64,000 nucleotides of DNA from positions 79,299-143,298 of the forward strand of contig JBHOQS010000015.1 of NCBI GenBank assembly GCA_042408875.1, read 5' to 3'. The translations under genes and the position numbers were made by a program. Under the pieces are notes generated by a model. That model saw only the letters and a program-made list of their open reading frames with translations, searched no databases and was not told where the DNA came from. Position 1 is the first letter of the stretch. Each line of letters opens with the position of its first letter. Origin of the DNA: Chloroflexota bacterium (GTDB lineage: Bacteria; Chloroflexota; UBA11872; JBHOQS01). Of this stretch, positions 6,828 to 23,444 are shown piece after piece.

Positions 6828-7745
6828 GTGTCAGTCAGCTCCCCCGATCTGAGCGTCATCATCGTCAGCTTCAACACGCGCGCGCTGCTCGAAGCGTGCC
6901 TGCGCTCCCTCGGCCAGACGCGCGTCGCGCTCGAAGTCTTCGTCGTTGACAATGGCTCCACCGATGGTTCGGTGGAGCTCGTACGGGCCCAGTTCCCACA
7001 GGTGCGGCTGCTCCTGCCGGGGCGAAACCTAGGGTTTGCCGCGGCAAACAACATGGCCCTACGCCGGGCTACGGCGCGCCATGTCCTGCTGCTTAATCCG
7101 GATGCTGCGGTCGAACCCGGCGCCCTCGAGGCTGTAGTAAACTTCCTCGACCAGCATCCTGATGTCGGCGCGCTGGGCGGGCAGCTTACCTACGGCGATG
7201 GCAGCTTCCAGCACTCGGTGTTCCACTTTCCAACACTGCCGATGATCTTTCTGGACTTCTTCCCTCTGAACCATCGCCTGCTGAACTCTCGACTGAACGG
7301 GCGCTACCCGCGCCGCTGGTACGACCGATCGTTCGATGTTGACCATCCGCTGGGGGCGTTTATGGCCGTGCGCCGCACAGTGCTCGAAGACGTCGGCCTG
7401 CTTGACCCCAGCTATTTCATGTACTGTGAGGAGATCGACTGGGCCTATCGTATCCGCCGCGCTGGCTGGCGCATCTGCTACGTTCCTGACGCGCGTGCGG
7501 TGCACCACGCCGGCCAGAGCACCAGCCGACTCCATCGGCAGATGTTCGTCGAGCTCTATCGCAGCCGCTATTTGCTGTATCGCCGCTATCGCTCTATAGT
7601 ATTTTGCCAGGCTGCCCGCGCCATCGTGCGCGCCTGTTGTCTCGTCACGATTGGACGTGACGCGCTCCTGGTGCTGGCCGGGCGACTGGATCCGGCCGTT
7701 GCCCGTGGCCGACGTGAGGTGCTGTTGGCGGCTGCAGCATTGTGA
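6828..7745 (+). CDS. Glycosyltransferase family 2
   Basis: LSVIIVSFNTRALLEACLRSL ... VVDNGSTDGS ... GFAAANN GT-A fold signature; GTG start 9 nt after eda stop. Confidence 0.85.
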   Translation: MSVSSPDLSVIIVSFNTRALLEACLRSLGQTRVALEVFVVDNGSTDGSVELVRAQFPQVRLLLPGRNLGFAAANNMALRRATARHVLLLNPDAAVEPGALEAVVNFLDQHPDVGALGGQLTYGDGSFQHSVFHFPTLPMIFLDFFPLNHRLLNSRLNGRYPRRWYDRSFDVDHPLGAFMAVRRTVLEDVGLLDPSYFMYCEEIDWAYRIRRAGWRICYVPDARAVHHAGQSTSRLHRQMFVELYRSRYLLYRRYRSIVFCQAARAIVRACCLVTIGRDALLVLAGRLDPAVARGRREVLLAAAAL

Positions 7746-8539
7746 ACGCCTTCGCTGCGCGAGCCACTGTTATGGGCGTCACCGCAATCGTGCTCACCCG
7801 CGATGAGGAGCGCCACATCGTGCCCTGCCTCCAGACGCTGGCCTGGGCCGGCGAGCTGATCGTGGTTGATTCCGGGAGCCAGGACCGCACTGTTTCCTTA
7901 GCGCGCCGTGCCGGGGCACGCATTGTGTGTCGGGAATTCGATAATTGGGCTAAACAAAGACAATTCGCGCTCGGGCTGGCGCGCTATCCCTGGGTACTCT
8001 TCGTTGATGCTGATGAGCGCGTGACACCGGAGCTGGCCGCTGAGGTGCAGGCTGTTACCGCCCAGCCAGAGGGGGAGATCGCCGGTTACTGGATGCCGCG
8101 CCGCAACTTGATCCTCGGACACTGGATGCGCGCAACTGGCTGGTATCCCGATTACCAGCTCCGCCTGATGCGCCCGGACCGCAGCGAGTATGACTTCACA
8201 CGGCCGGTCCATGAGCTCGTGCGGCTGCACGGGCCGGCAGCGTATCTCCGGGGACATCTGCTCCATTACACTGGTGATGACCTGCGCCGCTTTCTACGCA
8301 AGCAGGAGCAGTACGCTTGGTACACTGCGGAGCAGATGTTCCGTGCGGGCACTCGTCCGAAGCTGCGCAACTATGTGCTCCAGCCATGGCGCGAGTTCTG
8401 GCGCCGGATGTGGTCCTACCGTGGCTACCGTGATGGCCTGCACGGACTCGCGCTCAGCCTGCTGATGGCCTATTACACCTGGCGCACCTATGTCACGCTT
8501 GGCCGGCGGTGGCACGGGTATGGCCGCCCAGCTCAGTAG
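7742..8539 (+). CDS. Glycosyltransferase family 2
   Basis: TAIVLTRDEERHIVPCL ... VVDSGSQD ... FVDADERV; GTGA start/stop overlap with upstream GT2 (ATG 7772 is an alternative start). Confidence 0.8.
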   Translation: MNAFAARATVMGVTAIVLTRDEERHIVPCLQTLAWAGELIVVDSGSQDRTVSLARRAGARIVCREFDNWAKQRQFALGLARYPWVLFVDADERVTPELAAEVQAVTAQPEGEIAGYWMPRRNLILGHWMRATGWYPDYQLRLMRPDRSEYDFTRPVHELVRLHGPAAYLRGHLLHYTGDDLRRFLRKQEQYAWYTAEQMFRAGTRPKLRNYVLQPWREFWRRMWSYRGYRDGLHGLALSLLMAYYTWRTYVTLGRRWHGYGRPAQ

Positions 8540-9530
8540 CGCTCGGCCGGACGTCACCGTCGTAATTGTGAGCTGGAACGTCCGCGGCTTCCTGGCGCGC
8601 TGTCTCACTACTGTGCAACGAGAGGCACAGACGGCGCCGTTCGCCACACAGATCGTGGTCGTGGACAACGGATCGACCGATGGCACACTGGACATGCTGG
8701 CACGGCAGTTCCCGGAGGTCTCTGTGCTGGCGAGTTCGTCGAACTGCGGGTTCGGCGCCGCCAACAATCGGGCCCTGGCTCGCTGTGCCACCCGCTACGC
8801 CCTAGTGCTCAATCCCGACACCGAGCTCCTGCCCGGTGCGCTGGCCAGCCTGGTCGCCGAGCTTGAGGCACATCCTGATGCGGCCGTCTGCGGACCGATG
8901 CTGCTCAATGCCGATGGATCCGTGCAATCATCACGGCGTCGCCTGCCATGCGCGATGACTGGCTTTGTCGAGAGTACCCTTGTCCAGCGGTTCCTGCCTG
9001 ACCTCACACTGCTGCGCCACTATTACGCCGCCGACCGGCCCAATGACGTGGCACAGGAAGTCGATTGGGTGACCGGCGCAGCTATGCTCGTGCGCGTGAA
9101 CGCGGCACGCCAGGTAGGGCTCTTTGACGAGGGGTTCTTTATGTTCTCTGAGGAGCTCGACTGGTGCTGGCGCTTCCGGCGTGCCGGATGGACCGTGCGG
9201 TACACGCCGGCGGCGCGGGTGATCCACTATGGCGGCCAGAGCACGGCCCAGGTGCCGCTCAGGCGCCAGTTACTGTTCCTCCACGGGAAATACCGCCTGT
9301 ATCGCAAATACTTTGGCCGTGCTCTAGAATTGGCGCTGCGAGGTTTCATCTTCTGCACCTATGTGGCCCAACTTCTCGAAGAGGCAGTGAAGCTACTCTA
9401 CCGGGCTGAGCAGCGTCCCCTCCGCGCCGAACGGGCGCGGACGTTCATGCACATTCTGCGATGGCATGTACAGGGCTCGCCGCTGCCGGTCCCTCGGAGT
9501 GGCGCGCCCGCGGCGGAGCCAGTGCGATGA
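8520..9530 (+). CDS. Glycosyltransferase family 2
   Basis: VTVVIVSWN ... VVDNGSTDGT ... GFGAANN; ORF 8490..9530 trimmed to ATG 8520 (MAAQLSS...), overlapping the end of the upstream gene. Confidence 0.85.
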   Translation: MAAQLSSARPDVTVVIVSWNVRGFLARCLTTVQREAQTAPFATQIVVVDNGSTDGTLDMLARQFPEVSVLASSSNCGFGAANNRALARCATRYALVLNPDTELLPGALASLVAELEAHPDAAVCGPMLLNADGSVQSSRRRLPCAMTGFVESTLVQRFLPDLTLLRHYYAADRPNDVAQEVDWVTGAAMLVRVNAARQVGLFDEGFFMFSEELDWCWRFRRAGWTVRYTPAARVIHYGGQSTAQVPLRRQLLFLHGKYRLYRKYFGRALELALRGFIFCTYVAQLLEEAVKLLYRAEQRPLRAERARTFMHILRWHVQGSPLPVPRSGAPAAEPVR

Positions 9531-10792
9531 CGTACCGCATCTGCCTGGTCTCCGGTGAGTACCCGCCCGCTCAGGGCGGTGTGGGCGATTACACTGCCTG
9601 CCTGGTCGCTGAGCTCGCGCGCCGGGGCCATGAAGTGCTCATCGCCACCTCGCGGCGCATTCCGGCATCGGCAGGCGGCAATGTTTTCGTATACCCGCTG
9701 GTCGAGCGGTGGAATGCCGCTGCCCTGCCAGTCCTGCAGGCTTTCCTGCGCCAGGTCCGCCCCGACGTCATCCACATTCAGTATCAACCTGCCGCCTACA
9801 GTATGGAGTGGGCGATCTGCCTGCTGCCAGCAATGATCCGGCACATGAACTGGCGTCCGCAGGCGCGGGTGGCTGGCAGCCCGCTCGGCCGGCCGCTTGC
9901 CGGCGCGCGTCCCCTGGTGGCAGTGACCTGCCATGATCTGCGTGTGCCCTGGCTCTTTCCGAAGGCCGGGCCGCTGCGCGAGCTGCCGCCGCGGCTCATG
10001 CGCTGCGCCAGTGATACCGTCATCGCCGTTGCCGCCGAAGACCTGGCGCTGCTTCGGGCGCGCGGCGAGGCGATGCGTGCAACGCATATTCCGATCGGCA
10101 GCAACATCGCGGTAGCGCCACCACCCGGCTACCGGCGCGAGGCATGGCGCGCCGCCCACGGCGTCGGCCCTGACGAGCAGCTCATCGGCTTTTTCGGCTT
10201 TGCGAACGCCAGCAAAGGGCTAGACACCTGGTGGCAGGCCCTGGAGGTGCTGCTCCACGCCGGGCGGCCGGTCCGGCCCGTGCTGATCGGCGGCACAGCT
10301 GGTGACAGCGACGCGACCAATGCGGGCCAGGTGCGGGCGTTGGAGCACTGGCGTAGCAGCAGCGCTGCCGGCCGGCGCGCCATTGTGACGGGCTTCCTCC
10401 CCCCGGCCGAGGTGTCGGCCTGGCTGCTGGCGTGTGACGCTTGCGCACTGCCCTTCCGCGATGGCGCGTCGCTTCGCCGCGGGAGCCTGCTCGCCGCCCT
10501 ACTCCACGGTGTTCCCGTGGTCACGACTTTCCCGCCCAGGGCTGGGACCGCGTTGGAGCCGGGCCGACATGTGCTGTGCGTGCCGCCCGACGACGCTAGC
10601 GCGCTGGCCGCTGCCCTGGCACAGCTCCTCGACGACTCCGAGCTCCGCGAGTGCCTTGCCCGGGCCGGCCGTGCACTGGCCGGGCAGTACACCTGGACCG
10701 CCATCGCCGCACAGCACTTGCGCCTGTACCAGGACCTCCTAGCGCGCCTTCGTCCCCACACCCCGAGCATCCCTGCAGAGGAGTGTCTATGA
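9527..10792 (+). CDS. Glycosyltransferase family 4 (GT-B, retaining)
   Basis: ORF 9461..10792 trimmed to ATG 9527 (MTYRICLVSGEYPPAQGGVGDY), ATGA overlap with upstream stop; C-terminal GT4-type nucleotide-sugar binding region. Confidence 0.85.
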   Translation: MTYRICLVSGEYPPAQGGVGDYTACLVAELARRGHEVLIATSRRIPASAGGNVFVYPLVERWNAAALPVLQAFLRQVRPDVIHIQYQPAAYSMEWAICLLPAMIRHMNWRPQARVAGSPLGRPLAGARPLVAVTCHDLRVPWLFPKAGPLRELPPRLMRCASDTVIAVAAEDLALLRARGEAMRATHIPIGSNIAVAPPPGYRREAWRAAHGVGPDEQLIGFFGFANASKGLDTWWQALEVLLHAGRPVRPVLIGGTAGDSDATNAGQVRALEHWRSSSAAGRRAIVTGFLPPAEVSAWLLACDACALPFRDGASLRRGSLLAALLHGVPVVTTFPPRAGTALEPGRHVLCVPPDDASALAAALAQLLDDSELRECLARAGRALAGQYTWTAIAAQHLRLYQDLLARLRPHTPSIPAEECL

Positions 10793-10811
10793 TCCCCGGT
10801 GAGGTGCGGCA

Positions 10812-13800
10812 GTGCATGTGAGGCTGCCCGCTCGCAGCTCCTCGTCCCGTCCGGTGCACCTTCCTGGCGGTGCCACTGTGGGCGCGCCGGGCGCGCGCCC
10901 GCCCATGGTGCCGCTCGGCGTACTCGCGCTGACGCTGCCCGCGTTCCTCGTGCGGCTCTGGGGTATCGATTGGGAAAACCTCTGGTGGGATGAGGCGCTC
11001 AGCGTGTACCGTGCCAGCTCGACCTGGCCGGAGTTGCTCACGAACACGATCCGCATCCAGGGGACAGAGACGAAAGACCTGCACCCGCCGCTGTATTTCG
11101 TCTTCCTCCGCCTGTGGATGCTCGGTGCCGGCCAGAGCGAGTTCGCCGCGCGCGCGCTCTCAGCTATGCTCGGCGTGCTCCTCGTGCCCCTCGGAGCCGC
11201 GCTGGCGGCCCGGTTGGTCGGGCGCCGGGCCACGCTGCCCGCGGCAGCTCTGGCGGCGTTCTCTCCGTTTGCCGTGTGGTACGGCCAGGAAGCGCGCATG
11301 TACACGCTTGTGCCGCTGCTCAGCGCGCTCTCGGTCTACGTGCTGCTCCGGGCACTCGAAGAGCAACAGCTCAGGCTCTACGTGGCGTATCTGGCCACCA
11401 CCGCGGCGCTGCTCTACACACACTACTTCGGTCTCTTTCTCCTGGCGGTCCACGCCGGTTGCGTACTGCTAGCGGCGCGACAACAGGCGCGCCGTGGCCT
11501 GCGCTGGAGTCTCCACCCGCTGCGCGCTCCCGACCGGGCTGTGCCGCTCCTGGCGGTGCTCATCGGCGCACCGCTCACACCGTATATCGTGTGGCGGCTC
11601 ACGACGGGGCATGAGTGGGGACGCCGGCTCATCTCGCTGCCGCAGATCCTCTGGGACACCTGGCGTGTGCACCTGGCCGGCCTGGCTGGTGGCTGGCATG
11701 CCGAAGCGCTCAGCGTGGCTGTCGCGGGCGCATGCGCGGTGGTCGCGCTGGTTTTGTCCAGGCAGCGGTCCCCTCGCCCGGCACTGGCGCTGGGACCGTC
11801 GAGCGTCGGGGGGAACGGCCATCCAAGCCATACGGGCCATGCGAACTCTGCAGGTGCTGTATACCGAGCTGCCGGACCGCGCTGGGATATGCTGGCCATC
11901 TATCTCCTCGTCCCTGTAGTGGCGATCTTCCTGCTTTCGCTGATCAAGCCGCTCTTTGGCCACATCAGGTATATGAGCATCGTGTCGCCGGCGCTGTACA
12001 GTGCATTGGGTGGGGCCATCGCCTCCTCTCGCCGTGGCGGTGTGCTGCTGGCCGGCCTAGCCGGCCTGGCGATGCTCTACGGGAACGCTGCCCAGCGTCT
12101 TGACCCCGCCTCGAGGCGCGAGGCATACGCCGCGGCCATGCAGTTCGTCGAGCGCCACAGCCAGCCGGGGGACGCCGTCATCTTCTACGCGAACGGCTCG
12201 GAGCCTGCGTTCCTCTATTACGTCAAGCGCGGGCTCCCGTGGTACTCGCTGCCGCGCCCGGAGCACGACCGCACCGACCCGCGGCTGATCGGAGAAGAAT
12301 TGGCGCCTATCGCGCAGGCCCACCCGCGTGTCTGGCTGGTCACCCTGGGCGCGGAGATGGCCGACCCGCGTGGGCTGATCGTCGAATGGCTGGAGACACA
12401 TGCGGTACGCAGCCTGAGCGCCAGCTTCTGGGGTGGCGGCTTCGGCAGAGCGCTTGAGGTGGCGCGCTATGAGACCCGGCCAGTGTACGGGACTGCACGT
12501 GCGGAGGTCACCGGGCTCGGTGCCGGCGGGACTAGCACTTGGCCCGGTGCGCTGCTGGTGCAGGCGGCCAGCCCAGGCGTCAATCTGGGGAACGCGCTGC
12601 GTTTGCACCAGGCCGTTTTTATCGTTGACACCGGCGCCGGCAGCGCCACAGCAACCTATTACTGGGAGGTGCTTCGCCCGGTTACGAACGAACTCGTGGT
12701 GTCAACCCGTATCGTGGACGGTGAAGGGCGAACGTGGGCGCAGCGCGACAGCCCGCCTCTGAATGGCAGCGCCCTGGCCTCCCAGTGGCAGGCCGGCACG
12801 TTCGTCCGCGATGTTCACGACCTGACGCTTGAGGACGGGATGCCACCCGGCCACTATTACCTTGTGCTGGAGGTCTACTCGCTCCCGGCACAGCGTGGTC
12901 TGGAAATTATAAACGAGCAGGGCATCGGCAGCGGGACGCTGGTCCGTCTCGGTGAATTCACGACTGTCGCACCCGCGCCTGCTGTGCCTCCCCGGCGACT
13001 GCTCCCCGTCCGCATGGGCCCGATCGACTTGCTGGAGGCCCGCCTGGGAACCGGGAGCGCGAAACCTGGCGAGCGCCTGCGGGTCCAGGGTCTGGTGCAG
13101 CTCACTGGGCAGGGCGCCGCTGGGGTAGCTGGCGGGGCTGGCGCGCCACAGCCGGTTCTGCGCGCGCGGCTGGTAGATGCGCAGGGCCATACCGTACGGG
13201 AAGCCAGTGCGCCGCTCGGGCTACTGTTCGGGGAGGATACTGGGCAGGACCGCGGTCGCGGTGCTGTGCTGGGATGGAAGCTGGACCTCCTGCTTCCCGC
13301 GGGCTTGCCGAGCGGCCGCTACCGTGCACAGGTCGCCCTTGACGCGCCCGGCGCCAGGGCTGCTGCGATCCGCTGGGGACGCCTGCTGCACCCGTCGGTG
13401 TGGCGTCCTGCAGTCTCCAGCGATGGTGGCCCGGCCACTGCGCCGGCGTTGCGCTGGCCGCGCCCGGCGGGTCACCCGGTTGGCGGCGGCTGGGTCGAGG
13501 TCGGCGAGGTCCTCGTCCAGGGACGCACTCCTGACCTCCATTCCCCGCGGCCGCAGCATGTCATCTCGGTGCGGGTGGGCGAAGCCATCCAGCTCATCGG
13601 GTATGATGTGAGCACGACGAGCATACGGCCCGGCGAGACGCTCTACCTCACGCTCTACTGGCGCTGCACCGCAGCGATGGAGACCAGCTATACCGTCTTC
13701 ACGCACCTACTCGATCCGTCCGGCCGGCTGCGCGGCCAACATGATGACATACCCCACCGCGGTGAGCTCCCGACGACGAGCTGGGTTGCTGGGGAGTACA

Positions 13801-13985
13801 TCACCGATCGCTATGAGCTCCAGCTCGCTGCAGACGCACCGCCTGGAATATACTGGCTGGAAGTCGGCATGTATGATGCCCGTACGCTGGTCCGGTTACC
13901 GCTCTACGCTGATGGCGCGCGGCTTGCGGACGACCGCGTGCTTCTGACACAGATCATGGTGCAGCCCGCCGCACCACTGCAATGA
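10812..13985 (+). CDS. GT-C fold glycosyltransferase, PMT/ArnT (GT39/GT83)-like, with large C-terminal extracytoplasmic domain
   Basis: 1057 aa; multi-helix N-terminal membrane domain with a DE motif in the first loop (WWDEALSVY); GTG start with GAGGTG upstream; C-terminal domain carries repeated PPG.Y.L..G.YD motifs. Confidence 0.75.
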   Translation: MHVRLPARSSSSRPVHLPGGATVGAPGARPPMVPLGVLALTLPAFLVRLWGIDWENLWWDEALSVYRASSTWPELLTNTIRIQGTETKDLHPPLYFVFLRLWMLGAGQSEFAARALSAMLGVLLVPLGAALAARLVGRRATLPAAALAAFSPFAVWYGQEARMYTLVPLLSALSVYVLLRALEEQQLRLYVAYLATTAALLYTHYFGLFLLAVHAGCVLLAARQQARRGLRWSLHPLRAPDRAVPLLAVLIGAPLTPYIVWRLTTGHEWGRRLISLPQILWDTWRVHLAGLAGGWHAEALSVAVAGACAVVALVLSRQRSPRPALALGPSSVGGNGHPSHTGHANSAGAVYRAAGPRWDMLAIYLLVPVVAIFLLSLIKPLFGHIRYMSIVSPALYSALGGAIASSRRGGVLLAGLAGLAMLYGNAAQRLDPASRREAYAAAMQFVERHSQPGDAVIFYANGSEPAFLYYVKRGLPWYSLPRPEHDRTDPRLIGEELAPIAQAHPRVWLVTLGAEMADPRGLIVEWLETHAVRSLSASFWGGGFGRALEVARYETRPVYGTARAEVTGLGAGGTSTWPGALLVQAASPGVNLGNALRLHQAVFIVDTGAGSATATYYWEVLRPVTNELVVSTRIVDGEGRTWAQRDSPPLNGSALASQWQAGTFVRDVHDLTLEDGMPPGHYYLVLEVYSLPAQRGLEIINEQGIGSGTLVRLGEFTTVAPAPAVPPRRLLPVRMGPIDLLEARLGTGSAKPGERLRVQGLVQLTGQGAAGVAGGAGAPQPVLRARLVDAQGHTVREASAPLGLLFGEDTGQDRGRGAVLGWKLDLLLPAGLPSGRYRAQVALDAPGARAAAIRWGRLLHPSVWRPAVSSDGGPATAPALRWPRPAGHPVGGGWVEVGEVLVQGRTPDLHSPRPQHVISVRVGEAIQLIGYDVSTTSIRPGETLYLTLYWRCTAAMETSYTVFTHLLDPSGRLRGQHDDIPHRGELPTTSWVAGEYITDRYELQLAADAPPGIYWLEVGMYDARTLVRLPLYADGARLADDRVLLTQIMVQPAAPLQ

Positions 13986-15952
13986 GCCGGCGTGCGGGTC
14001 GTGGAGGCAGCATGACGAGAACGGTGCTCAGCCCGCCTGAGCAAGCCGCGTACTCTGTACCGGCACAACAGGCCGCGCCTCATCCACCGCACCGTGCTGC
14101 CAGCGTGGCCGTAGCTCTCCTTGCTGTCTGGTGCTTCTTCGTCAGTGCGGTGTACAGCGTTGCCACGCCGATCTTTGAGGCGCCGGATGAGCCCTTCCAC
14201 TTCGCCTATGTCCGCTGGCTTGCCTCCGGCCGCGGCCTGCCCGTGGTCGATCCGCTCCGGCCGGAAGCCTGGCGCCAGGAAGGCACGCAGCCGCCGCTCT
14301 ACTACGCGATCGGGGCGCTGCTCACCAGTTGGCTTGATACGGGCGACCTCCCGCTCGTGCTCGCATTCAATCCGCACGCCCGTCTAGGCGTCCCCGACGC
14401 CACGGACAATCGCAATGCGGTGATCCATACCCCTCGTGAGCATTTTCCGTACCGAGGCTCCGTGTTCGTGGTGCATCTCCTGCGGCTGCTCTCTGCCGCG
14501 CTGGCCGCCCTCACCATCCTGGCCACGTACATGCTGGCGAGAGCGGTGTGGCCAGAGCGGCGGAGCGCGGCCCTGCTCGCTGCGGCGCTCGTGGCCGCGA
14601 ATCCTATGTTCCTATTCATCAGCGCATCAGTGAACAACGACGCGCTGGCTACGCTGCTTGCGACGACTTGCCTGACACTCACGGTATACGCCGCAGTGCG
14701 GCCCTCTCGCTGGGGTGCGCTGGCAGCCGGGGCAGCTGGTGGGCTGGCGCTGCTGGCGAAGCTGAACACTGCGTGGGTTATCCCACTGGCCGCGCTCTAT
14801 ACCGGCATGTGCACATACCGTCGGGAGGGGCCGGGCGCGGCGCTGCGCGCTGTCAGTGCGATGCTGCTGGCCGCCGTCGCGGTGGCCGGCTGGTGGCCGG
14901 CGCGCAATCTGCTGGTCTACGGCGACCTGGCTGGCCTGGCCGCGCACCTGGCCGTGATGGGCAGCGCGCCCCGCCGCGAGGTCGCCCAGCTTCTCGACGA
15001 GCTGGCAGGGCTGCGTTTCGCTTTCTGGGGCATCTTCGGCTGGTTCAATGTCCTGCCACCGCTCGCCTACTACATCCCCTTCTGGAGCGCCACCTGCGCG
15101 GGGCTAGTCGGGCTGGCCTTGCAGGTAGGTTCGGGACGCCGGGGCAGCTCACCCGTGACTGTGCCCGCGCGACCTGGCCAGGCGCCACTGTGGCTGCTTA
15201 CCGGGGCGGTCCTCTCGGCCCTGGGCAGCCTGCTGTGGTGGACCCTCCAGACACAGGGCGCACAAGGGCGGCTGCTCTTTCCGGCGTGGCCCGCTGCGGC
15301 GGTCCTGCTGGTCTACGGCTGGGAGCGGCTTGCCGGCGCGCGCCGGTTGCTCCCCTTCGGGAGCGCTCTCGTAGCTGCACAGGCCGTGCTCGCTGCCGTG
15401 ACCCCGCTCGCCGTGATCGCCCCGGCCTATCACCTTCCGGCCGACAGCCAGCCAGGGCTCGGCCAGGCCCGTCCCGCGGCAGCGGGGACCGGCGAGCTCT
15501 GGCGGTATGACGGCCGTATCGCTCTGCTCGCAGCGGAGCTTCCAGCCACTGTGCGCCCCGGCGAGCCAGTAGTAGTTACCCTGCACTGGCGAGCGCTGGA
15601 CGCGCCGGGCCGGAACCTGTCGGTGTACGTCCAAGTCCTGGCGCCGTCGGGCCGTAAAGTCGGGCAGCGCGATAGCTTCCCCGGCGGAGGCCTCGCACCC
15701 ACAGTCTACTGGCGTGCCGGTGATGAACTCATCGAGCGCGTTACCGTACCGCTGGAGCCCGACCTGCCACCTGGGGAGTATACGGTCCTGGTCGGCCTGT
15801 ACGATCTCGCGCCGCCGGCCCATCTGTTCCTGCCAGCGCCGGCCTCCAGCGACCGCATCCGTGACTCCCGCTACATCGTCGCCGGAACAGTGCGCCTCGT
15901 AGCTACGCAGCCCGAGGCAGGACAGGCTGCCGGGGAGGGCGGACGGCAGTGA
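13982..15952 (+). CDS. GT-C fold glycosyltransferase, PMT/ArnT-like
   Basis: 656 aa; ATGA overlap with upstream gene; first loop APDEPFHFAYV; multiple TM helices; C-terminal LPPGEYTVLVGLYD motif shared with the upstream paralog. Confidence 0.75.
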   Translation: MSRRAGRGGSMTRTVLSPPEQAAYSVPAQQAAPHPPHRAASVAVALLAVWCFFVSAVYSVATPIFEAPDEPFHFAYVRWLASGRGLPVVDPLRPEAWRQEGTQPPLYYAIGALLTSWLDTGDLPLVLAFNPHARLGVPDATDNRNAVIHTPREHFPYRGSVFVVHLLRLLSAALAALTILATYMLARAVWPERRSAALLAAALVAANPMFLFISASVNNDALATLLATTCLTLTVYAAVRPSRWGALAAGAAGGLALLAKLNTAWVIPLAALYTGMCTYRREGPGAALRAVSAMLLAAVAVAGWWPARNLLVYGDLAGLAAHLAVMGSAPRREVAQLLDELAGLRFAFWGIFGWFNVLPPLAYYIPFWSATCAGLVGLALQVGSGRRGSSPVTVPARPGQAPLWLLTGAVLSALGSLLWWTLQTQGAQGRLLFPAWPAAAVLLVYGWERLAGARRLLPFGSALVAAQAVLAAVTPLAVIAPAYHLPADSQPGLGQARPAAAGTGELWRYDGRIALLAAELPATVRPGEPVVVTLHWRALDAPGRNLSVYVQVLAPSGRKVGQRDSFPGGGLAPTVYWRAGDELIERVTVPLEPDLPPGEYTVLVGLYDLAPPAHLFLPAPASSDRIRDSRYIVAGTVRLVATQPEAGQAAGEGGRQ

Positions 15953-18408
15953 CCCGTGGCGACCTCGCGGCGATCGCCGCCGTGCTGCTGCTTCCGGTGG
16001 CGCTGTTCTGGCGCGTGCTGTTCGACGGCGCGACCATGCCGCCGGGCGGCGGTGACTTCGCCGCGTTCGTCTACCCCAACTTCGTCTTCGCCGCACGCTG
16101 GCTCCAGCAGGGCACACTGCCCCTGTGGAATCCCCACTTCTTTTCCGGCGCGCCGTTCCAGGCCGACGTGCAGACCGGGCTCTTCTATCCATTGAACCTC
16201 CTCGCGCTGCTCAGTGCACGGCCATTCACCTACCGGGCGCTTGAGCTTCTGGCCATCGCCCACTACAGCCTGACTGGCCTGCTTATGTGGCTCTACCTGC
16301 GGCGCCTGGGTGTCGGACAGCTTGCCTCCCTGGCCGGGGCTGCGGCGTGGCAGGCCTGCGGGTTCCTGGTCGCACACCTCGGGCATTACAACATGCTGGC
16401 TGTAGCGGCCTGGCTGCCTGGCCTGCTCCTTGCCCTGGAGGCCGCCCTGCCGGCCCTGCGAGGGCCCGCGCTCGGGCGCGCGGCGCGGCCGGTGGGAGCC
16501 GCTGCCCTGGTGTACGGGCTGTCGGCGCTGGCCGGACACACGCAGATGACACTGTACCTGGGCCTCGCCGGGACGATCTACCTGCCGGCTCGTCTGCTGA
16601 CTAGCCTGGATGCCGGACCGGCCGCCAGCGCCCTGCGCGGCAAGCTGCTGGCGCGCGGGCTCGCTGCTGCGGCGCTCGTGCTTATGCTCGGTGGCGGCAT
16701 CGCTGCGGTGCAGTACCTGCCCACCCTGGAGCTAGCGCGGGTCTCGGTACGCGCAGCTATCACGTTTGAGCAGGGCCGTGAGTTCGCCCTGCCTGCGGCC
16801 GCCCTGCTGCTGTTCCTGGCGCCGGGCTTCTTCGGCTCGGCCCAGACCGGGATATGGTATCTTTCCAGCCTGACCGAGAGCTACACCTACACCGGCATCG
16901 TCGTGCTGGTGCTCGCCTCCGCCGGGGTCCTGCTGCCACGCCCACAGGTGCGGCGCCTTGCGCTCCTGCTGGCAGCCCTGGCGGCGGGGAGCTTGCTGCT
17001 CGCCCTCGGCGATGAGACCGCGTTGTATGGATGGCTGTGGCGAGGGGTGCCGCTCTTCGATCGATTGCGTGCGGCAGGGCGTTTCCTGCTGCTCACGCAC
17101 GTTGCCCTTGCGACCCTCGCTGCGCTCGGGCTCGACGGCCTACGGCCGCCCTGGGGCACCCGCCACCGCCTGTTTGTTGATCGCCTGCTAGCGGCCTGGG
17201 GGCTGCTGCTGGCCGCCCTGGTCCTGCTGGCGCTGCCCACTGGCTATCTGGGTCTGGCGCTATATGCCAGCCGCGATGCCGTACTGGCCCAGCGAGCCGG
17301 CGCAGCACTGGGATCGCTGACGGTCGCCGCGCTGCTTCTAGGCCTGACCCTGGGGCTCCTGGCCCTCTACCGGTCCGGCCGGCTGGGCTGGACATCCTTC
17401 GCTGGACTCATGCTTGTCCTGTTGCTGGCCGACCTCCACGGCGCGAACGGGCGCTACAACCCTACGACTGCTGATATCCTCTCAGCCTACCGCCATCCCG
17501 AGGCTGTGCAGTTCCTTGCCTCCCAGCCAGGCATCTTCCGAGTGGACAGCGACACCGGCATCGACGATATCTGGCACCCCAGCCTGCCGGCGCTGGCTGG
17601 CTATGAGAGCACCTGGGGCCTGTTCAACCCGCTCGGCCTGGCCGAGTATCAGGTGCTGCTCAAGGGCCACCTCCGCGACCGCTCGAGCAGGCTCTACCAG
17701 TTCCTGAATGCACGCTATCTGGTGGTGAAGAAGGGCGAGCGCCCGCCCGGTGAAACGTTCCGTCCGGTGTTCCTCCAGGACCCGCGGGTCGACATTTACG
17801 AAAACGCCCAGGCGCTCCCGCGGGCGTTCGTCGTGTACGACGCTCAGGTCGTGGACGGCCGCGCGGCCGCGCTGGCAGCCATCACCACCCCCGGTTTCGA
17901 TCCGGCGCGCACGGTTGTGCTCGAACGCAGCCAGGGAGATATACCGGCCAGCGCTGCCCCGTCGCCGCAGCCCTCCTTCACACCCGCTGAGCTCGAACAG
18001 ACAGGACCTGGACGGCTGCGCGTGCGCGTGCAGGCAGCGCGTCCAGGCTGGCTGGTGCTGAGCGAGGTCTGGTACCGCGGTTGGCATGCGAGGGTGGACG
18101 GCCAAGCTGCACCGGTGCGACGTGCCAACTGGCTCTTCCGCGCCGTGCCGGTGGATACGGGAGAGCACATCGTCGAGCTCTGGTTTGCCCCTGCCACCTT
18201 CGTCGCAGGAGCGGCGATCAGTGTCGCATCGCTGCTGGCGTGCCTGGTCCTGCTCTCACCGCTCCCCCAGCGCCTGGGCAGAGGCAGAGTGCAGGCGCCG
18301 TCTTCAGGGCGCTGTACGCCAGATATGTGCGATCCGCTGCACGACGGTGATGCTCGAGATGATGGCCAGCGCAGCAATAGCGATTTCCAGCGTCGGCCGG
18401 CCGAGTAG
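15949..18408 (+). CDS. YfhO family membrane glycosyltransferase-like protein
   Basis: 819 aa; GTGA overlap with upstream gene; N-terminal FDGATMPPGGGDFAAFVYPNFVFAARWLQQGTLPLWNPHFFSGAPFQADVQTGLFYPLN is characteristic of YfhO; many TM helices. Confidence 0.8.
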   Translation: MTRGDLAAIAAVLLLPVALFWRVLFDGATMPPGGGDFAAFVYPNFVFAARWLQQGTLPLWNPHFFSGAPFQADVQTGLFYPLNLLALLSARPFTYRALELLAIAHYSLTGLLMWLYLRRLGVGQLASLAGAAAWQACGFLVAHLGHYNMLAVAAWLPGLLLALEAALPALRGPALGRAARPVGAAALVYGLSALAGHTQMTLYLGLAGTIYLPARLLTSLDAGPAASALRGKLLARGLAAAALVLMLGGGIAAVQYLPTLELARVSVRAAITFEQGREFALPAAALLLFLAPGFFGSAQTGIWYLSSLTESYTYTGIVVLVLASAGVLLPRPQVRRLALLLAALAAGSLLLALGDETALYGWLWRGVPLFDRLRAAGRFLLLTHVALATLAALGLDGLRPPWGTRHRLFVDRLLAAWGLLLAALVLLALPTGYLGLALYASRDAVLAQRAGAALGSLTVAALLLGLTLGLLALYRSGRLGWTSFAGLMLVLLLADLHGANGRYNPTTADILSAYRHPEAVQFLASQPGIFRVDSDTGIDDIWHPSLPALAGYESTWGLFNPLGLAEYQVLLKGHLRDRSSRLYQFLNARYLVVKKGERPPGETFRPVFLQDPRVDIYENAQALPRAFVVYDAQVVDGRAAALAAITTPGFDPARTVVLERSQGDIPASAAPSPQPSFTPAELEQTGPGRLRVRVQAARPGWLVLSEVWYRGWHARVDGQAAPVRRANWLFRAVPVDTGEHIVELWFAPATFVAGAAISVASLLACLVLLSPLPQRLGRGRVQAPSSGRCTPDMCDPLHDGDARDDGQRSNSDFQRRPAE

Positions 18409-18888
18409 CAACCCCAGGCCCAGCGCCACCACCCGCTCCGGACGCTGAAAGAGGCCGACCTTACACTCGAGCCCCAACCCCTCGGCGCGAGCACGGGCAT
18501 AGCTAACCATGAGCGAGCCGATCACCGCCATGTACGTGAGCGCCAGCTCCAGCAGCGAGCCACCGTGCTGGTAGTAGTATAGGAGCACGCCGAAGAACAG
18601 CGCCGCCTCGGAGATGCGGTCCATAGTTGAATCGAAGAAGGCCCCGAAAACAGTCTTCCTGTTCGCCACGCGGGCGAGCGCACCGTCGAGCATATCGAAG
18701 GCGCCGGAGAACAGCACCAGCGCGCCGCCCCAGGCGAGGTGGCCGCTAGCGATCACCGCAGCCGTGGCCAGGTTCAACAGGAAGCCGACCAGGGTCAGGG
18801 CGTTGGGCGAGACGCCGAGGCGCGCCAGCGGCGTAACGCTGCCCTCTGCCACGCGGCGAGCCAGATCAACCAGCCAGGAGGCGAACAT
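18304..18888 (-). CDS. CDP-alcohol phosphatidyltransferase (candidate phosphatidylinositol-phosphate synthase)
   Basis: FDMLDGALARVANRKTVFGAFFDSTMDRISE matches D-x2-DG-x2-AR...G-x3-D-x3-D; last gene of the PI/PIM operon. Confidence 0.85.
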   Translation of the reverse strand: MFASWLVDLARRVAEGSVTPLARLGVSPNALTLVGFLLNLATAAVIASGHLAWGGALVLFSGAFDMLDGALARVANRKTVFGAFFDSTMDRISEAALFFGVLLYYYQHGGSLLELALTYMAVIGSLMVSYARARAEGLGLECKVGLFQRPERVVALGLGLLLGRPTLEIAIAALAIISSITVVQRIAHIWRTAP

Positions 18889-18891
18889 AGG

Positions 18892-20058
18892 CTAGCCCGT
18901 GCTCGGCAGCAGCACACCCGGCACTGGGCGCCGCTGCGCAGCAAGGATGTCTTCGTAATAGGCCAGGATACGCCTGGCGATGCGGTCCCAGGCATAGGCC
19001 TGCACGCGGCGCCGGCCAGCCTCGGCCAGCCGGGCCCGATAGCCGTCATCGGCAATCAGACGGGTCAGCGCCACCGCCAGCGCCGTCGCATCCCCAGGCG
19101 GCACCAGCAGGCCGGCCTCACCCGCCGCCAGGACTGTGCGATAGCCCTCAATGTTAGAGGCCACCACCGGCTTGCCCGCCGCCATGGCCTCCAGCAGGAC
19201 GATCCCCTGGCTCTCCCGGCCGATCGCCGGGGCGCAGAACAGATCGCAGGACTTATAGTAGCGGATCTTGTCCTCGGGCGAGACGAAGCCCTTGAAGAGC
19301 ACGTCGGTCAGACCAGCCTGCCGCACGAACGTCTCGTAGGCCGCGCGCTGCTCGGCCTCGAAGGCGCCGACCACGAGCAGGCGCACGCTGGGGAATTGCT
19401 GCTTCACGTACGTGAGCGCCTGAAGTAGGTAGAGCAGCCCCTTGCGCTTCTCCAGGCGCCCTACGAAGAGGATGTTCAGGTAACCGTCGCGCAGCTCTGG
19501 GAAGGGCGCCAGGCGCGGGTCGGCGAACTGCTCCAGGTCCACGCCGTTGGGAATGATCTCGTACGTGGCCGGGAAGTACGTGCTGATGAACCGCATGGCC
19601 GCCGTCGAGACAGCAATGCGCCCATGAAGCTTGGCGAAGTAGCGCGCCAAGATCGGCTTACCCAGGCGGTAGCCGGTGTAGGAGCGGCGCGCCGCATGGA
19701 AGGTCGCCACGTTGACGGTCGTGGAATGGCGCAGCACAGTAATCGGTACTGCTGGCGCGAACGGCTCGTGTAGATGGATAATATCGAAGTTCTCGGCGGC
19801 AAGGATCTGCTTCACCCGCCGGGAGAGGGTGAGCGACAGGTTGATGCGCGCCACCGCCTGATTGGCCGGCACACCAATGATCCGCTCTCCCACGCGGTAG
19901 AGGTTGTCGCACGGGAGCTCACGCTCGTCTTTCGAGGACGGCGCCAGAATGCGCACCTGGTGGCCCAGCCGCCGAAACTGCTGGTCAAGGTGCCGGATGT
20001 GCTCGGTGACGCCGCCCGGATAAGCAAAGTCGTATGGCGAGACCAGGGCGATCTTCAT
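18892..20058 (-). CDS. pimA: GT4 glycosyltransferase, PimA-like (phosphatidylinositol mannosyltransferase candidate)
   Basis: ORF 18892..20139 trimmed to ATG 20058 (ATGA overlap with upstream stop). MKIALVSPYDFAYPGGVTEHIRHLDQQFRRLGHQVRILAPSS resembles the N-terminus of mycobacterial PimA as I recall it (recalled, not aligned); C-terminal GT4 motif region. Confidence 0.8.
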   Translation of the reverse strand: MKIALVSPYDFAYPGGVTEHIRHLDQQFRRLGHQVRILAPSSKDERELPCDNLYRVGERIIGVPANQAVARINLSLTLSRRVKQILAAENFDIIHLHEPFAPAVPITVLRHSTTVNVATFHAARRSYTGYRLGKPILARYFAKLHGRIAVSTAAMRFISTYFPATYEIIPNGVDLEQFADPRLAPFPELRDGYLNILFVGRLEKRKGLLYLLQALTYVKQQFPSVRLLVVGAFEAEQRAAYETFVRQAGLTDVLFKGFVSPEDKIRYYKSCDLFCAPAIGRESQGIVLLEAMAAGKPVVASNIEGYRTVLAAGEAGLLVPPGDATALAVALTRLIADDGYRARLAEAGRRRVQAYAWDRIARRILAYYEDILAAQRRPVPGVLLPSTG

Positions 20059-21017
20059 GGGCGTTCCCCTGCAAGTGTACCGGCGGCCGACTGCGACGCG
20101 GTCTCTTCTGCTGGCCACATGCGACGGAACAGCACCCACTGGCCGGGATCGGCTGCGATCGCCCGCTCCATCATCTCGGCTAATCGCTGCGTCCCGGCGA
20201 TAAGGTCGGCAAGCTCATCTGCCGTGCGCGGCACCTGGAAGAGCGGCTCCACCCAGGCATGGAAGCGGTCACCCGGCAGGCGCCTGGCAAAGGCCATCGA
20301 GATAGGTGCGCCGCTCAGGCGCGCCAGGCCCGCCGGACCTTCCGGCAATCTAGTCGTGCGCCCGAAGAAGCGCACCGGCACGCCCTGTCCCCCGCGGGGT
20401 AGGAAGTCTGCTGCGATGCCGACGATCTCGTTTCGGCGGAGGGCTCGCAGCAATGTGCGCAGACTATTGTGCTCCGGTACGATATGCAGGCCCTTGCTCC
20501 CACGCAGGTGCACTAGCAGTTCCCACAGCCGCTGAGAGCGAGGCACCTCCATCGGCACCCACGCCTGAAACCCGTGCAAGGCGAAGTACTGCCCTACCCA
20601 GTCGATGTTGCCGTAGTGGGCCATGCAGAGCACCAGCCCTTTCCCTTCGCCCAGCGCGGCCTCGATATGCTCCCACCCCTCTATATGTAACACCCGGTCG
20701 AGCTCTTCGGCACGCAGCAGCGGGATACGAAACAGGTCGACGTAGTTCCGTGCTGCGGTGCGAAAGCAGCGGCGCATCGTCTGGTGCACCAGCCGTCTCT
20801 GCTCCTGAGGCGGCAGCGTGGCGAAGACCACCTGAAGGTTCGCGCAGAGGTTCCGCCGCGCCGGACGGGCCGCATAGCAGGCCCCCAGCGCGGCGGCATC
20901 GGCCAGGGCATAGGCAGCCCGGCGCGGCAGCTTCGGGACCGCCCAGGCCCCGGCGCGAAAAAGCCAGTACACGACCGTGTCGCTCAGGCGCTCCGCGGCC
21001 ACGGCCGTCTCACTCAT
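20055..21017 (-). CDS. Lysophospholipid/lipid A-type acyltransferase (LpxL/HtrB/PatA-like)
   Basis: 323 aa; HYGNIDW acyltransferase motif region; overlaps both neighbours by 4 nt. Confidence 0.8.
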   Translation of the reverse strand: MSETAVAAERLSDTVVYWLFRAGAWAVPKLPRRAAYALADAAALGACYAARPARRNLCANLQVVFATLPPQEQRRLVHQTMRRCFRTAARNYVDLFRIPLLRAEELDRVLHIEGWEHIEAALGEGKGLVLCMAHYGNIDWVGQYFALHGFQAWVPMEVPRSQRLWELLVHLRGSKGLHIVPEHNSLRTLLRALRRNEIVGIAADFLPRGGQGVPVRFFGRTTRLPEGPAGLARLSGAPISMAFARRLPGDRFHAWVEPLFQVPRTADELADLIAGTQRLAEMMERAIAADPGQWVLFRRMWPAEETASQSAAGTLAGERP

Positions 21018-21955
21018 GCGAGGCCGGTGCCCGCCTCAGGCTGCGCCGCCGGCCCTGGCGCTTCCAGAAGCCCGCGTTCCGCCGGCTGGACCGGCGCACT
21101 GGGCCACATCGGCCGGAACATGTACCACTGATCGGGATGCAGGCGGATAATCCCCTCCAGGCCCTGGACGATCTGCTGCATCAGCGCCTGGACCTCCTGC
21201 TCGAAGTTGCCCGTCGAGGCCGGGATGATCGGCGGCGCAATCACGCCGGAGTAGGTGTTGTCTCGGTTCCGCCACATGCCCATCGGCACGACCACCGCGC
21301 CCGTCTTTAGCGCCAGCGCCGCGGCGCCAGCCGGCACGTTCGTGCGCTGTCTGAAAAAGGTCACCTCGACACCGCTGGCGTCAACGGGCCGGTCGATCAG
21401 GAGGCCGACGATCTGGTTTCGCCGCAGCACCCGGAAGAGCTTGCGCGCTGCGCCGTCCACGTCGATCACTTCGATGCCAGTGTGCCGGCGGATGCCCTGG
21501 ACCAGCTCGTTGAGCTGGGGCGGCTTGAAGGTATCCGCCACCACAGTGACTTTGAAGGTACGGGCCAGGAACGCCGCGCCCACATCCCAGTTCCCGAAGT
21601 GCCCGCTGACGAAGATGACCCCCTTCCCGTGCGCCAGCGCCTCCTCCAGGTGCTCCCACCCGCGCACGTGCCGGACAGCGCGGGCGATCTCTTCGGGCGA
21701 GAGGTGCCGCAGGCGCAAGAACTCCGCCAGGTACTTGGTGTAGTTGCGCATAGAGCGCCGGGCGACGAGCTTGACCTGCGGATGGTCGGGCGGCAGACCA
21801 AGCACCTGGGCCATGTTCTGCAAGGTGATCTGGCTCTTCTCGCGCCACAGCCAGTAGAAGCACTCGCCGGCGATTACTGCGACCAGGTAGACCAGCCAGC
21901 TAGGCAGTACCTTCACCAGCGCGCTGCACACGCGCATCAGTACGTAGGTAAGCAT
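21014..21955 (-). CDS. Lysophospholipid/lipid A-type acyltransferase (LpxL/HtrB/PatA-like), paralog
   Basis: 313 aa; GHFGNWD motif; ATGA-type overlap with downstream acyltransferase. Confidence 0.8.
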   Translation of the reverse strand: MLTYVLMRVCSALVKVLPSWLVYLVAVIAGECFYWLWREKSQITLQNMAQVLGLPPDHPQVKLVARRSMRNYTKYLAEFLRLRHLSPEEIARAVRHVRGWEHLEEALAHGKGVIFVSGHFGNWDVGAAFLARTFKVTVVADTFKPPQLNELVQGIRRHTGIEVIDVDGAARKLFRVLRRNQIVGLLIDRPVDASGVEVTFFRQRTNVPAGAAALALKTGAVVVPMGMWRNRDNTYSGVIAPPIIPASTGNFEQEVQALMQQIVQGLEGIIRLHPDQWYMFRPMWPSAPVQPAERGLLEAPGPAAQPEAGTGLA

Positions 21956-22012
21956 ACCTTTCCCACCGCTCCCGTCCTGCGCCCACTCCTAAAGCACACG
22001 CCGTCTACGAGT

Positions 22013-23236
22013 CTACGAGCACTCACCTGCGTCGTTGTGGGGGCGTGCCTGGTCAGCGCCTGCGCCTTCGCTACTGCCGGCCCGTGCTGAGCGGGGACGT
22101 GCCCGCTCGGCTGCCGGGCCGCCCTCGCGCTCCGCCGCCGCGCGCAGCGTTGCCGAAGTCAGGTTTGACTCGCCACGGATAAACGCCTCGACGAGATTAC
22201 GCGCCTCGGTATCGCTGTACTGCACCGGCGGCGACTTCATGAAATACGCCGATGGCCCTAGCACTGTGCCAGCCAGCCCGCGATCCATCGCCAGCTTGCA
22301 GCAGCGCACCGCATCGATCACGACACCAGCAGAGTTCGGTGAGTCCCACACCTCCAGCTTGAGCTCGATGTTCAGCGGCACATCACCGAACGAGCGCCCT
22401 TCCAACCGGATGTACGCCCATTTGCGGTCGGCCAGCCACGGCACGTAGTCGCTGGGGCCGATGTGCACGTTCTCGGACCCGATGTCGTAATCGAGCTGTG
22501 AGGTCACCGCGTTGGTCTTGCTTTCTTTCTTGGAGGCCAACCGTGCGCGCTCGAGCATGTTCAGGAAGTCGGTATTGCCGCCCACGTTGAGCTGGTAGGT
22601 GCGCTCCAGGCGCACGCCGCGCTCACGGAACAGGTTCACGAGTACGCGGTGAAGGATCGTGGCGCCCACCTGCGACTTAATGTCATCACCGATCACCGGC
22701 AAGCCACGGCTCTCGAAGCGCCGTTGCCAGTACCGCTCGCGCGCGATGAACACAGGGATGCAGTTGACAAAGCCACAGCCGGCGTCGAGCACCTGCTCGA
22801 CATACCACTTGGTCGCTTCTTCTGATCCCACTGGCAGGTAGTTCACCACCACGTCGGTCCCGGTGTCTCGTAGGATCTCCACGATGTCATCGGTTGAACC
22901 CGGCGCTTTCCGGATGACCCCGGCCAGATACTGGCCGATGCCGTCGTGCGTCATACCCCGATACACCGGCACACCCAGGTGCGGGACATTGGCGAACTTT
23001 ACGGTATTGTTCGGCGCGGTGAAGATCGCCTCGCTCAGATCGCGGCCCACCTTGCGTTCATCGATGTCGAACGCAGCGCTGAACTCGATATCGCCGATGT
23101 GATAGCCACCCAGATCAACATGCATGAGCCCCGGCACGAACTCATCGGTCGGGGCATGGCGATAGTAATGAACACCCTGGACCAGTGCCGACGCGCAGTT
23201 GCCGACGCCGACGATCGCCACGCGAACCTTGCTCAC
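22013..23236 (-). CDS. ino1: myo-inositol-1-phosphate synthase
   Basis: [28 protein letters not shown] ... [22 protein letters not shown] ... [19 protein letters not shown], typical of bacterial/archaeal MIPS; GTG start with AGGAGA RBS; about 50-aa C-terminal tail beyond the usual end. Confidence 0.88.
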
Positions 23237-23243
23237 CCACCGT

Positions 23244-23340
23244 CTCCTTTTATATTTATTTTATTATATTTATTTTTTTATTATATTATTTTTTATTATG
23301 CTATTTATGTTAGCTTGCATTATCTTTTGGTTGTATTATT
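23244..23340. promoter_or_regulatory. Extreme AT-rich island upstream of ino1 operon (probable promoter / unwinding element)
   Basis: About 95 bp almost entirely A/T in a GC-rich genome, directly upstream of the ino1 RBS and downstream of the ArsR gene stop. Confidence 0.5.
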
Positions 23341-23444
23341 GACTTCTCGTCCTAGCCCGGTTGCCCGGCGTCAAGCGTGCCGGGTATGCCCAGCACGGGC
23401 TCACGCCCAGGCAGTACGCCTGGCACACCGTCCAAGCCAGTGCC

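Follow-up and report, generated by a model that had tools for sequence, protein, structure and literature searches.

Positions 6828–23236 of the 64,000-nucleotide stretch analyzed here (contig JBHOQS010000015.1 of the Chloroflexota bacterium assembly GCA_042408875.1; hereafter the window) hold an operon for phosphatidylinositol (PI) glycolipid synthesis and a cluster of glycosyltransferase (GT) genes, which are probably two separately conserved modules, arranged convergently in a Chloroflexota genome. The minus-strand module (23831–18304) would be an operon shared across the phylum that makes an inositol glycolipid, and the reading of its product as a lipid resembling the phosphatidylinositol mannosides (PIMs) is well supported by sequence comparison and very likely correct. 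The plus-strand module (6828–18408) would be a lineage-specific, translationally coupled operon, in which four predicted cytoplasmic Leloir GTs (three GT2 and one GT4) and three predicted extracytoplasmic GT-C enzymes may assemble or decorate a surface glycoconjugate. An earlier note on this DNA had taken both together as one 16-kb locus for a PI-anchored lipoglycan. Its PI and early PIM portion stands, but the joint locus is not supported in the form proposed: the halves are conserved separately and adjoin only in close relatives, PI genes are absent around 80 other YfhO loci, and the GT-C enzymes are of other families than those of the mycobacterial pathway. Because the PI operon and the GT-C cluster are conserved independently, the claim of a single lipoglycan locus is only partly supported.

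Open reading frame (ORF) listing and Pfam and NCBIfam profile searches placed all twelve genes named in the earlier note at the coordinates given below, with strong domain matches, and its inventory (PI synthesis, two GT4, two acyltransferases, three GT2, and three GT-C) is correct. Neighboring genes on each strand overlap (by 4 bp, for instance) or sit at most 57 bp apart, and thus form two convergent operons. On the minus strand, the matches to PimA, PatA, and phosphatidylinositol phosphate (PIP) synthase are specific, not generic. The GT4 encoded at 18892–20139 (likely start 20058, giving 388 residues) aligns over residues 23–401 with Mycobacterium smegmatis PimA (PDB entry 2gej; E 3.7e-69, 237 bits) and scores 233 bits against 4n9w. 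This similarity is full-length and far above that to other GT4 enzymes; the next unrelated GT4 reaches 91 bits, MshA 66–71 bits, and PimB' 56 bits. Two acyltransferases of the LpxL/HtrB superfamily are encoded upstream. PatA-like protein 1 (21014–21955; NF005919) is closer to PatA than to the late acyltransferases of lipid A synthesis, with M. smegmatis PatA as its best PDB match (5f2t; 108 bits, vs. 51 bits for LpxM). Both catalytic residues described for PatA, His and E200 (PMC4792965), have counterparts: the histidine of the HX4D motif is kept (HFGNWD aligned with HSGNWD), and an Asp aligns with E200 as the block-3 acidic residue. PatA-like protein 2 (20055–21017; NF005919, 155 bits) is a paralogue of the first, with 31–33% identity by blastp. 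The CDP-alcohol phosphatidyltransferase at 18304–18888 (PIPS; NF045883 and NF040950) carries an intact DxxDGxxAR-x8-G-xxxD-xxxD motif (DMLDGALAR-x8-GAFFDSTMD), and its best PDB matches are the characterized PIP synthases of Renibacterium and M. tuberculosis (5d92 and 6h53; ~95 bits). The ino1 gene (22013–23236), for myo-inositol-3-phosphate (L-myo-inositol-1-phosphate) synthase, is matched by PF01658 (3.6e-38) and TIGR03450 (5.9e-160, 532 bits). Together, these scores bear out the PI/early PIM interpretation of the minus-strand operon.

This module is conserved phylum-wide in Chloroflexota, as judged from its homologues. All named close homologues of the PatA-like protein, and of the YfhO-family and 1057-residue GT-C proteins of the plus-strand module, come from Chloroflexota metagenome-assembled genomes, with Anaerolineae, Caldilineaceae, and Promineifilaceae among the sources, and an 85%-identical PatA fragment is also labeled Chloroflexota. 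The host is thus not an actinobacterium, the proviso on which the earlier note had made the novelty of the pathway depend. PatA homologues are numerous at 40–52% identity, and in the six loci where their context was examined the order is [ArsR]-ino1-PatA-(PatA or PHP-domain protein)-PimA-PIPS. The PimA-like protein of the window is 55–64% identical to its homologues in other Chloroflexota loci. A metagenome scan with a PimA alignment returned 80 further loci (48–63% identity), which carry no taxonomy and which, with the six PatA contexts, make up 86 PI-operon loci. PimA is followed by PIPS in all of these that have enough sequence. Around half consist of ino1-PimA-PIPS. In the others, one to three PatA genes are added, an ArsR gene is frequently present, and a PHP-domain gene frequently lies directly before PimA. 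Tandem PatA pairs like that of the window are also present in 13 loci (L084–L087, L092, L094, L095, L099, L103, L111, L117, L120, and L140). In Actinobacteria, the operon order is pgsA1-patA-pimA (Rv2612c–Rv2610c). Neither the window nor the related loci have this order, PimA preceding PIPS throughout, which argues that the loci are not actinobacterial contaminants.

Two variations on the operon were observed among these loci. Three tandem PatA-like genes precede PimA in L107 and L109, which suggests multiply acylated products. A PHP-domain protein of ~250 residues is encoded directly upstream of PimA in L088 (10900–11637), L089 (10930–11667), L111 (4813–5592), and L118 (9252–10004), a position held in the window operon by the second PatA paralogue. 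The PHP-domain protein could be a PIP phosphatase and the second PatA paralogue an inositol acyltransferase, which would provide candidates for two steps of the pathway.

The steps proposed for the minus-strand module follow from applying established knowledge of the mycobacterial pathway to its gene content. Ino1 would convert glucose-6-phosphate to inositol phosphate, which PIP synthase would join to CDP-diacylglycerol to yield PI-phosphate. A phosphatase encoded outside the operon, or by the PHP-domain gene inside it in other lineages, would then release PI. On the cytoplasmic face, the PimA-like GT4 is predicted to glycosylate the inositol with a hexose (most likely mannose, donated by GDP-mannose), and one or both PatA-like enzymes to acylate the product to an acyl-glycosyl-PI resembling Ac1/Ac2PIM1. 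The scheme is that of the early PIM pathway of mycobacteria and corynebacteria, with homologues of Ino1, PIP synthase, PimA, and PatA in a single operon and a predicted progression from PI through glycosyl-PI to acyl-glycosyl-PI on the cytoplasmic side. It differs from its mycobacterial counterpart in the Chloroflexota host, in the order ino1-patA-patA-pimA-pips with PimA before PIPS, in the inclusion of ino1 and an ArsR regulator in the operon, in the pair of PatA paralogues, in the lack of PimB' and of an Rv2609c-like Nudix gene, and in scores just under the equivalog cut-offs. Another non-actinobacterial operon that combines inositol-phosphate synthase and PIP synthase genes is the inositol-lipid cluster of Bacteroides (MIPS-PIPS-PIP phosphatase; PMC9246714). 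That cluster supplies the synthesis of PI and inositol sphingolipids and lacks PimA and PatA, whereas the Chloroflexota operon is built around PimA-PIPS.

The plus-strand module opens with three GT2 genes, GT2a (6828–7745; PF13641, 3e-27; PF00535, 1e-25), GT2b (7742–8539; PF00535, 1.5e-13), and GT2c (8490–9530; PF00535, 2.9e-21), followed by a GT4 of no specific subfamily (GT4x, 9461–10792; PF13692 and PF00534). GT2a and GT2c are paralogous (40% identity) and look like soluble Leloir enzymes, both having EpsD, MftF, and chondroitin synthase among their NCBIfam and PDB matches, together with PgaC for GT2a and a rhamnosyltransferase for GT2c. GT2b is uninformative, with weak matches to GmaR (37 bits), TIGR04283, and AglJ (28 bits). 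A Ppm1/GtrB-type synthase of polyprenol-phosphate sugars, which the earlier note had suggested looking for, was rejected for GT2a and GT2c by phmmer searches of the PDB and by NCBIfam, GT2b being ambiguous. The GT2 gene beside a homologous GT-C in locus L172 served as a positive control, and its product matches ArnC, PgfS, and dolichyl-phosphate hexose transferases. GT4x was also rejected as a PimB', with only weak and generic GT4 matches in the PDB (best 46 bits; PimA 29 bits). No GtrA-like flippase, for which the earlier note had suggested the same search, is present in the cluster: ORF listing gave neither such a gene nor any small four-helix membrane protein, and the 64-kb window contains no adjacent GtrB/CsbB-type GT2 and GtrA-like flippase of the kind that define three-component systems. 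Profile searches of the cluster found no priming phosphoglycosyltransferase, flippase (Wzx), polymerase (Wzy), or ABC exporter. Having neither primer nor export genes of its own, the module would depend on other genes for its acceptor and lipid anchor.

Three GT-C genes complete the module, encoding a GT39/ArnT-like, PMT_2-type protein of 1057 residues (10812–13985; PF13231, 1.3e-10), a DUF2142/PMT_2-type protein of 656 residues (13982–15952; PF09913, 5.8e-10; PF13231, 3.7e-7; PF02366, 3.7e-5), and a YfhO-family protein of 819 residues (15949–18408; PF09586, 7e-11). None has a sequence-level match to a solved structure in the PDB. The AlphaFold 2 model of the YfhO protein (pLDDT 87.6) finds AftD, ArnT, oligosaccharyltransferase subunits, and AftA as its best solved matches in Foldseek, and D36 is invariant in 35 homologues. 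The model of the 1057-residue protein (pLDDT 79.3) comprises a membrane core with a periplasmic domain (residues ~35–560), followed by three C-terminal β-sandwich repeats (~575–1052). Its core aligns with ArnT (TM-score 0.59, normalized to the target) and Pmt4 (0.51), with AglB also a top match and EmbA/B appearing only at low TM-score; the C-terminal domains match macroglobulin and immunoglobulin-like folds. Invariant in 34 homologues are W58, D60, and E61, as well as D89, H91, P92, P93, and Y95, forming a loop-1 acidic motif (WWDE) and an HPPLY motif that we take to be of GT39 type. Fold comparison thus places the YfhO and 1057-residue proteins in the GT-C superfamily, and the assignment of the DUF2142 protein comes from Pfam matches only.

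The β-sandwich repeat, which has no Pfam match, occurs three times in the 1057-residue protein and once at the end of the DUF2142 protein, whose residues 513–633 are 37% identical to residues 926–1045 of the former. Many other GT-C proteins of Chloroflexota end in it as well.

The GT-C enzymes do not belong to the PimE or Emb type. At E ≤ 0.01, Pfam gives PMT_2, DUF2142/PMT, and YfhO only, with no match to GT87 (PF09594, PimE/MptC) or to the Arabinose_trans/Emb profile; NCBIfam returns no mannosyltransferase equivalog for any of the three; and the solved structure of PimE does not figure in the 50 best fold matches of the YfhO and 1057-residue models. The assignment to PMT_2/GT39-ArnT-like, DUF2142, and YfhO families is one that the earlier note had itself listed as speaking against its proposal.

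Over evolutionary distance, the two modules are independent. Scanning 185,579 species genomes with an alignment of YfhO homologues returned 80 Chloroflexota loci (27–41% identity), and in tblastn searches with the full set of window proteins, no match to PIPS, PatA, or Ino1 lay within 10 kb of the YfhO homologue in any of them. About 20 of the 80 hold other GT-C genes whose products carry the C-terminal repeat as well. PI genes are also absent within 10 kb in both contexts of the 1057-residue GT-C homologues (L172 and L173), and in L091 a YfhO homologue of 42% identity stands alone. Only the close relative L090, where YfhO is 81% identical, retains all 12 genes in this arrangement. A fuller version of the plus-strand cluster was seen in a groundwater Chloroflexi locus (L070, 1–19537), with GT2 (41% identity), GT4 (38%), YfhO, methyltransferase, PMT_2 GT-C, and Wzy_C-like genes and no PI genes. 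It adjoins genes for GDP-mannose 4,6-dehydratase, an epimerase, phosphomannomutase, and a polyprenyl synthase, which hints at mannose- or fucose-derived sugars.

The converse survey, from the side of the PI operon, covered the flanks of the 86 PI-operon loci (210 kb at up to 2 kb from the operon and 397 kb further out), in which ORFs of at least 380 residues with at least seven hydrophobic segments were listed and each was classified. L111, L085, L118 (duplicate L119), and possibly L101 have GT-C-like genes, which in no case lie more than 1.3 kb from the operon; the 397 kb of far flank gave none, in agreement with a PMT_2 profile search. The binomial chance of three to four independent cases all falling in the near flank is ~0.04 to 0.014, and the clustering is suggestive, not strong. 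In L111, the genes ino1-PatA-PatA-PHP-PimA-PIPS-orf-GT-C form a co-oriented, tight string that ends in a same-strand PMT_2 GT-C at a distance of 613 bp from PIPS. This GT-C and the catalytic N-terminus of the 1057-residue protein share 37% identity, and the best matches of the L111 protein among the collected sequences come from the lineage of the 1057-residue protein. The L085 GT-C, also PMT_2, is convergent with the PI operon at a distance of 1.3 kb. The L118 protein has nine helices and a sub-threshold GT87 match (E 0.004), and its gene follows PIPS and a thioredoxin gene on the same strand. The L101 protein (661 residues, 17 helices) has no Pfam, NCBIfam, or YfhO-profile match and is unclassified. 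Given the GT-C genes beside PI operons and the homology of the L111 protein to the 1057-residue core, it is plausible that in Chloroflexota GT-C enzymes elaborate a PI glycolipid on the outer side of the membrane; for the cluster in the window this is only a possibility.

Several of these results count against reading the locus as a PIM-like operon beside a cluster of separate function. The GT-C genes in the near flanks of PI operons are one. Another is the nature of the independence itself, which rests on homologues of 27–41% identity from a paralogue-rich family that may not be true orthologues. The lack of primer, flippase, and polymerase in the plus-strand module fits a pre-made lipid acceptor, such as glycosyl-PI. 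On the minus strand, Ino1 falls below the TIGR03450 cut-off of 638 bits, PatA-like protein 1 reaches 195.7 bits on the PIM acyltransferase model NF005919 (cut-off 209), and PIPS scores 155 bits on NF045883 (cut-off 170) and 162 bits on NF040950 (cut-off 180). Scores slightly under these equivalog cut-offs are expected, because the host phylum is distant. The window also has neither a PIP phosphatase nor a PimB-like second mannosyltransferase. It might then be asked if the product of the operon is not a PIM-like lipid but, for example, a mycothiol-like inositol glycoside (through MshA), a product of lipid A-type acylation, or an archaeal-like GlcNAc-PI/glycosylphosphatidylinositol lipid. TIGR03450 is named for mycothiol organisms, PIPS scores equally well on an archaetidylinositol-phosphate synthase model, and the sugar specificity of the GT4 is only predicted. 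The MshA/mycothiol and lipid A alternatives were nonetheless rejected on relative scores: the GT4 matches MshA at 66–71 bits against 237 for PimA, the acyltransferase is nearer PatA than LpxM, and no lpx genes are present. A membrane CDP-alcohol transferase with PatA-type acyltransferases fits a lipid and not a soluble thiol, and a different hexose on PI would still give a PIM-like glycosyl-PI. A product of another kind is therefore improbable.

What the plus-strand module acts on is a more balanced question. In the single-locus proposal, PimA and PatA would make an acyl-glycosyl-PI primer, to which the GT2 and GT4 enzymes would add further sugars in the cytoplasm; once flipped, it would be elongated or branched on the outside by the three GT-Cs with polyprenol-phosphate sugars, giving a molecule like lipomannan (LM) or lipoarabinomannan (LAM). 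The absence of priming phosphoglycosyltransferase, Wzx, Wzy, and ABC exporter genes is consistent with this, as are the adjacency to the PI operon, kept in L090, the three to four GT-C cases near PI operons (210 kb) against none in the far flanks (397 kb), the L111 homologue of the 1057-residue catalytic domain, and the best structural match of the 1057-residue protein, ArnT, which is a lipid-modifying GT-C. LM/LAM assembly (PimE, MptA/B/C, EmbC, and AftB–D) shares with the window GT-C-fold enzymes encoded beside PI/PIM genes, the similarity of the YfhO model to mycobacterial AftD, and that of the 1057-residue protein, weakly, to EmbA/B. It differs in that the window has no GT87 or Arabinose_trans match and no Ppm1-like GT2, and that linkage is not conserved past close relatives. 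The GT-Cs belong to other families than PimE, MptA/B, and Emb; GT2a and GT2c are not of Ppm1/GtrB type, with GT2b ambiguous, while the L172 GT2 clearly is; the cluster has no GtrA-like flippase; and GT4x gives no PimB-like signal. The operons are also convergent, and so separately transcribed. On this balance we doubt that the 16-kb block is one lipoglycan locus, and it is equally doubtful that module 2, the plus-strand operon, acts on the lipid made by module 1.

The other possibility is that module 2 serves protein O-glycosylation or the decoration of a wall or sheath polysaccharide, unrelated to the PI operon, on the model of actinobacterial Pmt (GT39) or of the multi-component YfhO-type systems that glycosylate teichoic acids and streptococcal surface proteins. 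The 1057-residue protein resembles Pmt4 as well as ArnT, NCBI names its homologues "glycosyltransferase family 39," and PgfM1/2 are among the NCBIfam matches. The YfhO family glycosylates lipoteichoic and wall teichoic acids (PMC5836110, PMC8035078), and its streptococcal relatives glycosylate proteins (PMC12041528). The neighbors of homologous GT-C genes are further GT-C genes and GT2, Wzy_C, and GDP-mannose genes, not PI genes, and the three immunoglobulin/macroglobulin-like domains of the modeled C-terminus may bind a polymer or protein. In detail, the window is like protein O-mannosyltransferases and ArnT (GT39/GT83, PMT_2) in its invariant loop-1 Asp-Glu and HPPLY-type motifs and in the TM-scores given above, and unlike the former in having three β-sandwich repeats in place of MIR domains. 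With the CsbB/GtcA/YfhO and GtrA/B/C systems (PMC5836110, PMC8035078), it shares YfhO-family and other GT-Cs that presumably use polyprenol-phosphate sugars outside the membrane; unlike them, the window cluster has no GtrB/CsbB-type GT2 and no GtrA/GtcA flippase. The cluster also lacks an acceptor protein, teichoic acid genes, and GtrB/GtrA partners, family membership does not fix the acceptor, and the recurrence of GT-C genes beside PI operons elsewhere is left unexplained. Chloroflexota are not known to make teichoic acids. This form of the proposal, with its specific models, is a serious candidate that falls somewhat short of probable; an independent role of module 2 in surface glycan or protein glycosylation, taken broadly, has close to an even chance. 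Two separately conserved modules remain the probable description of the locus.

Bacterial inositol lipids are considered rare (PMC9246714), and PIM and LM production is placed in Actinomycetes, where it is treated as a hallmark (PMC13223929). PI is a major polar lipid of cultured Chloroflexota, in which it occurs beside unidentified glycolipids and phospholipids (PMC12453558), and the conserved ino1-patA-pimA-pips operon predicts PIM-like lipids among these unidentified compounds. A literature search, with most subscription journals outside its coverage, found no PimA, PatA, PIM, or lipoglycan system described in Chloroflexota. If the prediction is true, PimA/PatA biology extends to an abundant environmental phylum. 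It is tempting to speculate further that Chloroflexota generally make PIM-like acyl-glycosyl-PIs, which in several lineages, that of the window among them, GT39-like, DUF2142, and YfhO GT-Cs extend on the outer side of the membrane into a PI-anchored lipoglycan. We regard this as unlikely; were it true, a molecule like LM/LAM would be built with GT-C families other than those of Actinobacteria. Chloroflexota are a phylum with an atypical single-membrane envelope, and the GT-C link, if it holds, would show by what means this poorly understood envelope anchors surface glycans.

The minus-strand unit probably extends beyond ino1 to an ArsR/HTH_5-type regulator gene, co-oriented with and upstream of it (23445–23831; PF12840, 3e-13; PF01022, 1e-12), and to the leader between them (23237–23345). 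The leader is 109 bp long and, at 19% GC, is the lowest-GC stretch of the window (66% GC overall); it holds one sigma-70-like match on the minus strand (23313–23285). Regulator and AT-rich leader would probably control the PI operon. A homologous helix-turn-helix gene precedes ino1 or PatA in 11 other loci (L088, L089, L098, L099, L104, L105, L115, L117, L120, L140, and L163). The leader is not conserved, other Ino1 loci showing ordinary intergenic GC dips of 10–25 points.

The convergent overlap of the YfhO and PIPS genes, to which the earlier note had drawn attention, is real at the ORF level (105 bp, 18304–18408), and arises because the YfhO protein carries a 35-residue C-terminal tail. As a conserved feature it fares less well: residues 789–819 are disordered in the AlphaFold model, and the tail is missing in the 81%-identical L090 orthologue, which stops 4 bp before the PIPS stop codon.

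The flanks of the two operons are unrelated to them, with cytochrome bc/Rieske genes and a 2-keto-3-deoxy-6-phosphogluconate (KDPG) aldolase gene upstream and pyruvate dehydrogenase genes downstream. The aldolase gene (KDPG/KHG type, 6160–6819, plus strand) stops 9 bp before GT2a, as it does in L090, and could share a transcript with the glycosyltransferase genes; nothing points to a functional connection. An inositol monophosphatase-family gene (34465–35376, minus strand; PF00459, 199 bits) lies 11 kb from the PI operon, and its product may be a source of free inositol or, conceivably, the PIP phosphatase that the operon lacks. An 806-residue protein encoded at 48563–50983 (plus strand) combines PG_binding_4 repeats with a YkuD L,D-transpeptidase domain, and indicates a peptidoglycan-containing envelope in the host. 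A tmRNA gene is located at 61127–61494 on the minus strand (Rfam RF00023, 182.7 bits), with the tag peptide AKPQYSYALAA.

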